Counted from the first letter of the stretch, positions 50,495 to 56,287 are shown. The stretch: 64,000 nt of DNA from a candidate division FCPU426 bacterium (GCA_040756875.1 JBFLYH010000002.1:638978-702977); one strand, 5' to 3'. Made by a program: numbers and translations. Notes: generated by a model not told the origin, from the sequence alone.

Positions 50495-50539
50495 CACACC
50501 TTTGGCCAAAAACCGGATTACTTAAACATCCGCGGCAGG

Positions 50540-50662
50540 GTGAAACTCCCCGCGGCTTGCCACGGGGGCTTCTGAATGTCACCCCTCCCTAGACCCCAGG
50601 GACCTTGGGGCCGAACCTTTCTCTCCATCCCTACGGCGAGCTGCGGGGCTTTGGTGAAGGGG
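50540..50662 (-). mobile_element. Non-coding IS200/IS605-like mini-element (PATE-like), copy 1
   Basis: Minus strand: TTAC, left hairpin, conserved core, then GAAGCCCCCGTGGCAAGCCGCGGGGAGTTTCAC; homologous to 54356..54482. Confidence 0.65.
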
Positions 50663-50811
50663 GTAAAAACGGCAGCCATCCTAACAAATGGGCGTTGATT
50701 CTGTCAACGATCAACTGGAGGGGTTTTGTTATCCGGCTGGCGTTTTTATTTATACCCTTCGATTATAAGAATTTTCCGCCAGGAGCAGGTCGGAAAATCC
50801 GCCAACAGCCG

Positions 50812-54317: not shown

Positions 54318-54354
54318 AAAAAAGGCGGGGAGCCGTTGCTCCCCGCCTTTTTTA
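54318..54354 (+). terminator. Bidirectional Rho-independent terminator
   Basis: AAAAAAGGCGGGGAGC-CGTT-GCTCCCCGCCTTTTTT. Confidence 0.9.
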
Positions 54355-54355
54355 T

Positions 54356-54482
54356 TCCCCTTCGCCAATAACTCGCTGCTTGCCGAGGGGCTACGGCGGG
54401 TCTTGAGGCTCGCCCCAAAGTCCCTGGGGTCTAGGGAGGGATGACATTCAGATGCCACGCAGATTACTGCGTGGAGCTTCAT
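54356..54482 (+). mobile_element. Non-coding IS200/IS605-like mini-element, copy 2
   Basis: TTAT, then TCCCCTTCGCCAA..., core 41/44 identical to copy 1, ending GATGCCACGCAGATTACTGCGTGGAGCTTCAT. Confidence 0.65.
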
Positions 54483-54512
54483 TTTCCCCATCCCCAAACA
54501 TCCTGAAGCAGA

Positions 54513-54542
54513 TTGTCAAACACCCGGCCTCTCTGGTAAACT
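54513..54542 (+). promoter_or_regulatory. Sigma70-type promoter of the PorV-TPR operon
   Basis: TTGTCA-18 nt-TAAACT. Confidence 0.45.
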
Positions 54543-54565
54543 ATGAGGAATAAGGAGCAGCTTGC

Positions 54566-56287
54566 ATGCGGCGCCTATTCCATGCGGTCCTTTTCCTCTC
54601 GCTCTCTTTGGTCGCCGGCACCCCGTGCCTCTCCCTGGCAGCCGAGGGCGATGCCGGCACCGAAGGGCCTTTTAATTTCGGGGTGGATGCCCGGGCCGTT
54701 GCTCTGGGACGGGCTTACACCGGTGTAGCCGAGGATGCCAGTGCCATTTATTGGAATCCCGGCGGCTTGGGACGCCTGGACAAAGCCGAAGTCGCCGCGC
54801 TATACGTTCCTTTATATGAGCAGACGGACTATGGTTTCTTGAGCCTCGCCTATCCTATCTACCGCCTGGGCGTCATCGGCGTCGGGGTTTTGGCCCAAAG
54901 CAGCCGCGGCATTCCCAAAACCGACGCCTATGACAACAGCCTGGGCGAATTCTCCGACACCCAGCTTTCCTGGCTGATCTCCTATTCCCGCATCTGGTGG
55001 CAAAACCTCGCAGCCGGCGTGAATCTCAAGGGTTATTACCACGGTCTGGACACTTATTCAGGCTGGGGGTTCGGCCTGGATGCGGGCATCCATTATCTGG
55101 CCGACGCATATGTACCTGGTTTGTCCCTGGGACTAACGGCCACCAATGCCTGGCCGCCGCAGGTGACGCTCGTGACCACTCCGGACATTTATCCCCTTAA
55201 CCTGCGCCTGGGCGCGGGCTACCATTTCGACCTGGATGCCGGCGGAGACCACCGCTTACTGATCAGCGTGGACGGCGAGAAACCCGAGTATGCGGGGTTC
55301 AAGCTGCATGCCGGAGCCGAATACCGCTTGTATAAAATCGTATCGGTCCGCGCCGGCTGGGATCACGACCAACCCACCCTGGGCGCAGGCGCGACGTATT
55401 GGGACTGGCGGCTGGACTACGCCTTGAGCCTGCAACCCGAGCTCGGACCCCTGCACTTGTTCACTTTAGGTTGGCGTTTCGGCCCTTCGCTGAGCGAAAA
55501 CGCCCAGGCCGAGCGTCAGCAAATCATGAACGAACTGCGTTTGTCCATGTCCAAGCAGTACAACCAGCGCGGCCAGGAGCACATGGCTCGCCACGAGTAT
55601 GCGGAAGCCGTGGAGGAATTCAAGAAGGCGCTGAGCTGGATGGAAGAATCAGGCGAAATCGCCGGCAACTTGGATAAAGCCCAGACCGCCTGGAACCGCC
55701 AGCAGGCCGAAACCAAAGCCCGCGAAGCCGAGCGTTTCTACTCCCAAAAAGCCTATTTCGACGCCCTCTTGTCCTGGCAGGGCGCAGCCAAGCTGAATCC
55801 CGAGTTTCCCGGCGTGAAAACCCAAATCGCCAAAGCGCAGCGGGCGCTGAAGTCACAGTTGGCCGCCGCCCCCCGCGCCAAGGCGCAGCGCGCCGGCAGT
55901 CGCGAGCAGGAAGCCCAGGACCTTTTTGTCCAGGGGCTGGCGTACTATGCGGACAGCGATTTTACCCGGGCCATCGCCAAATGGCGGGCAGCCCTGGAAA
56001 CCGATCCTTCGCATGTCCAGGCTGCAGCCTACCTGGCCAAGGCCGAAACTCAAAAACCCCAGCAGCCCTTGCCGGATGTGACGCCCACCACCAGCGAGCG
56101 CCAGCGTCAGGAAGCCCAAACCCTGTATGAATCCGGCCTGGTCAAGTACCGGCAGCGTGAATTTGCCCAAGCCCGGGCGCTCTGGCAAAAAACCCTGGCG
56201 CTGGATTCACGGCACGCGGACGCCCAGCGCGGGCTGGAGCGCATCGAGGCGATTCTGAAAGCTTTTGAAGACCGGGGTATCAAGTAA
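54566..56287 (+). CDS. PorV/UPF0164-like barrel fused to TPR repeats
   Basis: Signal peptide, GVDARAVALGRA, YWNPGGL, LDYAL, then TPRs. Confidence 0.85.
   Translation: MRRLFHAVLFLSLSLVAGTPCLSLAAEGDAGTEGPFNFGVDARAVALGRAYTGVAEDASAIYWNPGGLGRLDKAEVAALYVPLYEQTDYGFLSLAYPIYRLGVIGVGVLAQSSRGIPKTDAYDNSLGEFSDTQLSWLISYSRIWWQNLAAGVNLKGYYHGLDTYSGWGFGLDAGIHYLADAYVPGLSLGLTATNAWPPQVTLVTTPDIYPLNLRLGAGYHFDLDAGGDHRLLISVDGEKPEYAGFKLHAGAEYRLYKIVSVRAGWDHDQPTLGAGATYWDWRLDYALSLQPELGPLHLFTLGWRFGPSLSENAQAERQQIMNELRLSMSKQYNQRGQEHMARHEYAEAVEEFKKALSWMEESGEIAGNLDKAQTAWNRQQAETKAREAERFYSQKAYFDALLSWQGAAKLNPEFPGVKTQIAKAQRALKSQLAAAPRAKAQRAGSREQEAQDLFVQGLAYYADSDFTRAIAKWRAALETDPSHVQAAAYLAKAETQKPQQPLPDVTPTTSERQRQEAQTLYESGLVKYRQREFAQARALWQKTLALDSRHADAQRGLERIEAILKAFEDRGIK

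Follow-up and report, generated by a model that had tools for sequence, protein, structure and literature searches.

What are two gene-less elements of about 125 bp in a candidate division FCPU426 genome: stand-alone RNAs that carry guides for a nuclease encoded elsewhere, as a preliminary description of the sequence had supposed, or remnants of a mobile element? They lie in a stretch of 64,000 nucleotides (the window; G000:C2:638978-702977), part of a 3.22-Mb metagenome assembly, G000, that comprises seven contigs with approximately 60% G+C. We consider it very probable that both are non-autonomous, ends-only (PATE-like) derivatives of an IS200-group insertion sequence that encodes tnpA only. 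They are an ordinary kind of mobile-DNA relic and form a new family of a known type. The outcome is mainly corrective: a plausible "orphan guide RNA" lead becomes an ends-only IS200 family in a lineage without TnpB or IscB.

Anatomy of the elements and their family

Element 1 occupies positions 50540..50662 on the minus strand (123 nt), where it gives a full-length match to our covariance model R1 (87.5 bits), and element 2 occupies positions 54357..54482 on the plus strand (126 nt), where it gives the best R1 match (97.4 bits). Both are complete ends-only elements of the IS200 family. The preliminary description was right that two elements of this size are present and that neither contains a tnpA, tnpB or iscB ORF, there being no room for a gene in either; the model start of element 2, however, is 54357 and not 54356. 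The described termini are likewise present in the sequence. Both elements start with CCCCTTC(A/G)CCAA, element 1 after a TTAC target or cleavage motif at its left flank (50663..50666, minus strand) and element 2 after TTAT (54352..54355, plus strand), with one additional T between this TTAT and the element. At the other terminus, a G+C-rich hairpin is followed by AGTTTCAC or AGCTTCAT, giving the TTCAC and TTCAT ends. Alignment also reproduced the 41/44 identity of the 44-nt internal core. A 40-nt core has 0 and 2 mismatches to the two window copies and matches in 0 of 100 shuffles of the window; an exact-pattern scan of a collection of genome contigs for the core gave 1 locus only.

The left end of element 1 (50629..50662, minus strand), as delimited by alignment and pair counts, consists of CCCCTTCACC, a putative DNA guide AAAG (50652-50649) and the hairpin CCCCGCAG-CTCG-CCGTAGGG (50648-50629). 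Its right end (50540..50572, minus strand) is built of a guide GAAG(C), the hairpin CCCCGTGG-CAAG-CCGCGGGG (50567-50548) and the tail AGTTTCAC (50547-50540). The right end of element 2 (54451..54482, plus strand) has the corresponding parts: the guide GATG, the hairpin CCACGCAG-ATTA-CTGCGTGG (54455-54474) and the tail AGCTTCAT. The latter hairpin and its T-rich tail are also picked up by a simple terminator scan.

Two minus-strand genes flank element 1, one LOG-like and the other for a polyprenyl synthetase; the closest named homologues of the synthetase are from Planctomycetota MAGs (32-45% identity). Element 2 lies directly past the terminator of a 590-aa ORF, whose product matches no Pfam family, and 84 nt upstream of a TPR-protein gene (54566-56287). 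The hairpin of that terminator, at approximately 54324-54349, was flagged by weak terminator-like Rfam matches, and the TTAT preceding element 2 is the final part of its T-tract. A promoter scan returned 2 sites against 1.3 expected, a result to which we attach no weight, and plasmid and phage searches with the two elements gave no match. A sequencing-run search located the window DNA in one groundwater metagenome DNA run, possibly the source sample, and in no RNA run.

The core search beyond the window that had been proposed was productive. An nhmmer search seeded with eight copies recovered no fewer than 11 full-length copies (100-129 nt), along with fragments, in G000 (E 4.6e-38 to 7.5e-6), and R1 has 18 matches there. 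R1 matches are present in 13 of 41 genomes, G000 counted in: in 8 of 10 genomes of the same family, 3 of 4 of the second family in the order and 1 of 2 of one further family, with none in the others. Copy number reaches 15-18 in G000, G001, G005 and G012. The G000 copies are mutually only approximately 60-76% alike, and what unites them is well-defined boundaries, a left leader of CCCCTTCRCC, the TTCAY end and, ahead of the right hairpin, a conserved GTGACATTCRGA. The motif T[TG]AY is found 0-2 nt from the model start in 7 of 11 G000 copies and is absent in the other 4. The termini are asymmetric and lack inverted repeats; instead, the 100-130 nt unit contains two similar subterminal hairpins, which are on the same strand and in direct orientation.

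The terminal hairpins had been said to differ in sequence and still pair, and this holds across the family. In the 11 G000 copies, pairing reaches 93% in the right hairpin and 65% in the left, and each of the two helices shows compensatory changes at 4 of its 8 pairs. The covariance check gave a whole-structure score of 0.289 compared with 0.175 for shuffled data, and none of 500 shuffles reached it. Copy orientation relative to neighboring genes is mixed. Relative to local GC skew, the 18 G000 matches split 12 to 6, a difference that is not significant and was obtained on contigs from a metagenome assembly; the split runs opposite to the lagging-strand-template rule as we read it.

The parent insertion sequence and its reduction

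An autonomous insertion sequence with the same ends was found in metagenomes. The scan pattern, CCCCGCGG-N4-CCGCGGGG-AGYTTCAC, corresponds to the right end of one G000 copy (C3:26673); element 1 is a near-match to it. The scan returned at least 119 stretches, and the matches listed include 84 occurrences in 80 loci. Among these listed matches, 17 of the 84 have an IS200-type ORF that ends approximately 45 nt before the element end, in 27 the sequence upstream is shorter than 230 nt, and the other 40 fall into further classes. The ORF encodes 146 amino acids and scores 138.6 bits against Pfam Y1_Tnp and 150 bits against NCBIfam transpos_IS200 (cut-off 55). The parent is approximately 605-618 bp long, its exact boundary being our own reading, and carries tnpA only, with one and the same hairpin at both ends. 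Its left end is ...TTTAG CGAACCCTTTGCAGAAT C-CCCCGCGGCTTGCCGCGGGG ATGAATG. Its right end, approximately 35 nt of guide, hairpin and tail, is GATG CCCCGCGGCTTGCCGCGGGG AGYTTCAC, and the right-end module of element 1 is near-identical to it. Element 1 aligns to the parent only at 13-52 (left end) and 590-618 (right end), and element 2 only at 13-47 and 584-617. Because the two window elements match the parent at its ends only, we regard them as PATE-like derivatives of a tnpA-only IS200. The preliminary assignment to PATE-like IS200/IS605 elements is therefore upheld by the further copies, the insertion polymorphism described below and a parent with the same ends. No TnpB or IscB gene was found in G000 or in the 14 same-order relatives searched.

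Three parent classes were distinguished by eye, in which the base before the left hairpin is C, A or G and the flanks end in TTTAG, TTAT and T(C/A)AC, respectively. Searches of G000 and 40 relatives did not recover the parent. Three genomes of the same phylum contain classical IS200 genes of 145-160 aa, whose ends show GATA or GAAA, a hairpin and then TAATTCAT, AGAATCAT or AGTAACTTCAT; a wider IS200 clade has the same end design. Run with filters off on 18 classical IS200 loci, a set partly different from the Y1 loci scanned with default filters, R1 puts its right-end module immediately downstream of tnpA in 11 (12.6-16.2 bits), although these matches are weak (E 0.015 to 0.1) and two of the loci carry identical sequence. 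A hairpin scan of Y1 loci found a comparable right end only in the classical IS200 of G021.

The metagenome matches also include shorter forms. In L352 and L372, tnpA is deleted and approximately 190 nt are left. Two-hairpin forms (L339 and L361) have the left leader CCTTCTTCGCCA, which is like that of the window family. Forms of approximately 46 nt have a single hairpin between the left leader and the right tail AGYTTCAC; by eye, they account for approximately 24 of the 40 in further classes among the matches listed (L325, L327, L331, L357-L359, L367, L390, L399 and others), and they have the look of REP-like remnants at the end of IS200 reduction. The series, from 610 bp to approximately 190 nt, to 100-130 nt and finally to approximately 46 nt, shows stepwise reduction of an IS200. 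A few of the mini forms are perfectly palindromic, with the arrangement GTGAAACT-hairpin-AGTTTCAC (L364, L380 and L393). In G020, a relative from another family, at least four copies are 94-100% alike and are located at contig starts or within contigs (C20:1-119, C134:1-119 and C75:1632-1763), which suggests recent activity of the family there. The G020 variant is approximately 130 nt or longer and retains the terminal 70 nt or so of the parent, with the final part of tnpA.

On the left, each element has kept approximately 35-45 nt of the parent left end, namely a leader of 14-19 nt ending in a 4-nt DNA guide, plus the hairpin. On the right, it has kept approximately 35 nt of the parent right end, namely guide, hairpin and an 8-nt tail ending in TCAY, with a short unrelated filler in the middle. 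For the movement of these elements we propose a scheme drawn by analogy with IS608. A Y1 HUH TnpA supplied in trans would bind both hairpins on the top strand of single-stranded DNA and cut twice, once behind the flanking TTAY and once behind the terminal TCAY. Recognition of either cut site would come from base contacts made by the guide that immediately precedes the hairpin foot on its 5' side. The element would then exit as a single-stranded circle and be pasted 3' of another TTAY without target duplication. The copies probably spread during earlier visits of the autonomous insertion sequence, and we infer that those in G000 are now immobile.

This family resembles the IS200 group and IS608 in having subterminal hairpins on one strand, no inverted termini and insertion 3' of a tetranucleotide, and the parent with its 146-aa TnpA has the same ends as elements 1 and 2. 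It differs in that the window elements are gene-less and 123-126 nt long compared with approximately 610 nt for the parent, and in that a cognate tnpA was not found in G000. PATEs are described, in the sections of PMC7290912 and PMC10055086 consulted, as short elements that consist of palindromic ends only and need a transposase in trans. The window family, which is multi-copy, mostly intergenic and made of ends only, is of this kind.

Guide pairing, landing sites and insertion polymorphism

According to the consulted part of PMC5027513, IS608 recognizes its target, TTAC, through a left guide AAAG positioned 5' of the hairpin foot, and insertion always takes place 3' of the target. Element 1 carries the identical pair, a TTAC target and an AAAG guide. 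Guide and cleavage site covary, as they do in IS608. In 39 of 59 aligned matches (A-T 25, G-C 10, T-A 4), the nucleotide immediately 5' of the right hairpin is the complement of the final nucleotide of the element, compared with a shuffle mean of 22.6 and with 0 of 10,000 shuffles reaching 39, where the rows are related copies rather than independent ones and the shuffle counts are not true probabilities. Counting unique guide/tail combinations, which are subject to the same reading, 20 of 39 are complementary (shuffle mean 13.1; 50 of 10,000 shuffles reach 20). Across sub-lineages, guides ending in A, G and T go with elements ending in T, C and A, and the family is a clear natural example of the IS608-type rule that links guide and cleavage site. 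The rule is broken in 20 of the 59 rows, including element 2 (GATG with TCAT). The pattern at the left end is weaker, with C/G in 7, T/A in 3 and non-complementary bases in 10 of the rows with an identifiable T[TG]AY; the true boundary of several sub-families lies 6 nt upstream of the model start, which would add T/A cases.

Empty insertion sites, which had been named as a further check, were found by comparison with the sister genome G001. Both flanks mapped to G000 for 6 of the 18 G001 copies, the other 12 being without two-sided flank mapping. Four G001 copies (L102, L104, L105 and L106) are missing at the orthologous G000 sites, only the left half of L109 remains in G000, and L098 is common to both genomes. 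The empty L106 site in G000 reads ...GATTAC|AGGAGGGG, so that TTAC abuts the right flank; owing to divergence of the flanks, the empty sites do not match base for base. Flank repeats indicative of target-site duplication were absent in the 10 copies inspected. Five of the G001 copies are approximately 90% alike.

One G000 copy (G000:C3:64675-64778, minus strand) is located inside an ORF of 2010 aa (G000:C3:61959-67988; L315 2717-2820) and is read through in frame as approximately 34 extra residues of the protein. It is also present in G001, while the orthologues in G012 and G014 lack query residues 208-241 with the DNA continuous, and the outgroup empty site reads GTCAT. Comparison of the shared copy between G000 and G001 showed 2 mismatches in the right half (approximately 51 nt) and none in the left terminal 16 nt; the middle is approximately 60% identical and the flanking coding sequence approximately 88%. 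In 4 of the 11 full G000 copies (C1:1520811-1520911, C1:860432-860558, C3:31731-31833 and C1:362456-362561), the TCA/TTA of the right end is, on the other strand, the TGA/TAA stop of a convergent ORF. Such stops are expected if the TTAY target overlapped a TAA stop, because the element end mimics the target. The landing sites are harmless, in that convergent genes gain a stop codon from the element end and the ORF that contains a copy stays in frame.

Neither window element has a simple counterpart site in G001. The G001 region orthologous to window positions 50510-50810 (G001:C1:603917-604408; L085) contains two copies of another repeat of approximately 90 nt (…CCCCTTCTTGGCGACATCCCCGGAGCA…CCCTCCTGCGGAGGGGATGG) and no element 1. 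This is not a clean empty site, and the presence of a different repeat indicates that the spacer was colonized independently. Element 2 and the downstream TPR-protein gene are without a G001 counterpart (window 54483-56287 compared with G001:C1:600070-600245); only approximately 175 nt separate the flanking homologous blocks in G001. At L104 (G001:C1:1052962-1055466), an unrelated repeat of approximately 130 nt lies approximately 130 nt to the left of the element and has four G000 matches with 88-93% identity (C2:172571, C1:1482762, C1:1309084 and C3:21349).

The absent transposase and alternative roles

The only Y1 genes of G000 detected with PF01797 are two ORFs of 336 aa located 6 kb apart on contig C1 (G000:C1:1033649-1034732 and G000:C1:1039773-1040873; L190 5650-6733 and 11774-12874). 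They combine Y1_Tnp with a C-terminal region, which in one of them is Bac_DnaA_C-like (26.9 bits, below cut-off), and they fit the TIRYT group, subclass 2.1 of Quentin et al. 2018, as characterized in the consulted part of that paper (PMC6006769). Each gene lies between its own inverted repeats starting with GGGG (28 nt with 96% and 26 nt with 92% complementarity), which are unrelated in sequence to the element family. No classical tnpA was found in G000 or in its sister G001. Since TIRYT-type genes are the only Y1 genes of G000, its copies of the element are orphans in this assembly. One point counts against the ends-only explanation: G001 copies were inserted or lost after the two genomes split, yet neither genome has a classical tnpA. 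A multi-copy insertion sequence could have been left unassembled in a seven-contig metagenome assembly. When contig ends were examined by BLAST for such a sequence, the repeats shared between ends had no link to the element.

This point feeds the alternative that survives best, according to which the copies are not mere relics but are kept by the host for a REP-like hairpin role (termination, mRNA stability or protein binding) or are still moved by the two TIRYT-type proteins with their Y1 and DnaA_C-like parts. We consider it unlikely. Insertions and losses after the split without a classical tnpA are consistent with it, as are the two TIRYT-type genes present in both G000 and G001, but such genes also occur in element-free genomes (e.g., G003, G007 and G011), and the 26-28 nt inverted repeats that bracket them bear no relation to the element. 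Furthermore, R1 with default filters gave nothing at E <= 10 in 17 Y1 loci of relatives. The shared copy, with its near-unchanged termini around a middle of approximately 60% identity and within coding sequence of approximately 88% identity, argues for preservation of the ends, although it is one copy and lies inside a coding sequence. The right hairpin and T-rich tail of element 2 fit a simple terminator pattern. The mixed orientation of the copies relative to genes counts against this alternative. The wider form of this idea is that the family is active or kept in the whole order without a classical TnpA, the TIRYT-type proteins or a REP-like host function mobilizing or preserving the ends as RAYTs do with REPINs. 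It is about as unlikely; if true, it would account for both the insertions and losses after the split and the near-perfect termini in one orthologous copy. The REP/REPIN-RAYT and TIRYT systems share with the window family the HUH Y1 superfamily and hairpin-based recognition, but the elements are not arranged as inverted REP pairs, nor are Y1 genes flanked by them.

The role first suggested for elements 1 and 2 was that of stand-alone guide-RNA scaffolds of the TnpB reRNA or IscB omega RNA type, in which the right end and 3' flank would serve a TnpB, TldR or IscB encoded elsewhere. We now regard this as very improbable. The elements do resemble TnpB reRNA and HEARO in being structured and derived from transposon ends, and each has a different 3' flank that is readable as a guide. 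In addition, the consulted part of PMC10055086 describes IS605-family PATE-like elements of Geobacillus that often encode omega RNAs for TnpB or IscB, used in trans; those are IS605-derived, however, whereas the window family comes from a tnpA-only IS200. The parent lacks tnpB, and its right end of only approximately 35 nt is not a TnpB-type scaffold.

The partner proteins were not found either. PF07282, which covers the TnpB zinc-ribbon/RuvC part, has 0 matches in six frames of G000 and in 0 of 14 same-order relatives; among the 41 genomes, it has only two matches, both below cut-off and both in element-free genomes. NF040570 (guided_TnpB) gave nothing at E <= 0.1 in G000, and the match to NF040563 (guided_IscB) was confined to the HNH domain of a free-standing ORF of 174 aa (32.8 bits, cut-off 175). 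The resemblance to HEARO/IscB omega RNA that had been noted for the opposite orientation was not borne out, as a search of 241 nt around each element at E <= 10 gave no HEARO match on either strand, and no Rfam family reached its gathering score anywhere in the window. The E <= 10 search returned only terminator-like matches upstream of element 2 and sucA (E = 2.5) over the right end and flank of element 1, which we read as chance. Candidate guides, searched as 16-mers with up to 1 mismatch and as 20-mers with up to 3 mismatches, matched only themselves in the genome, which speaks neither for nor against a guide role. The single-sequence RNA fold z-scores of the window elements are only -2.0 and -1.9. 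The mixed orientation of the copies relative to genes and the location of one copy inside a coding sequence also argue against an RNA role. Because there is neither an effector gene nor an Rfam match, the guide-RNA role is unsupported, and for TnpB and IscB it is largely refuted in this assembly. A model of this family in annotation pipelines would stop such repeats from being taken for RNA genes.

Repeats of the REP/BIME or REPIN type served by a RAYT (TnpA-REP) are the least probable alternative and can hardly be entertained: the hairpins are G+C-rich, Y1 proteins of a RAYT-like branch are present (one of the two 336-aa ORFs, L007, scores 75.6 bits on NCBIfam REP_Tyr_transpos, cut-off 80) and one-hairpin mini forms occur in metagenomes, but the unit is 100-130 nt with two direct hairpins and distinct ends rather than an inverted REP pair, carrier genomes have Y1 genes bracketed by inverted repeats of their own and not by the element, and the parent is a classical IS200, present in multiple copies, whose tnpA lies between this same pair of ends.

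Two further observations concern the Y1 genes themselves. A class of Y1 genes of approximately 220 aa in the relatives is likewise flanked by repeats, which are of the GGTGCCAGGCAC type. The TIRYT-type genes of G000 sit in an island of lower G+C, together with large ORFs rich in repeats and a TTAGAC...ATATTTCCAT motif that recurs there.
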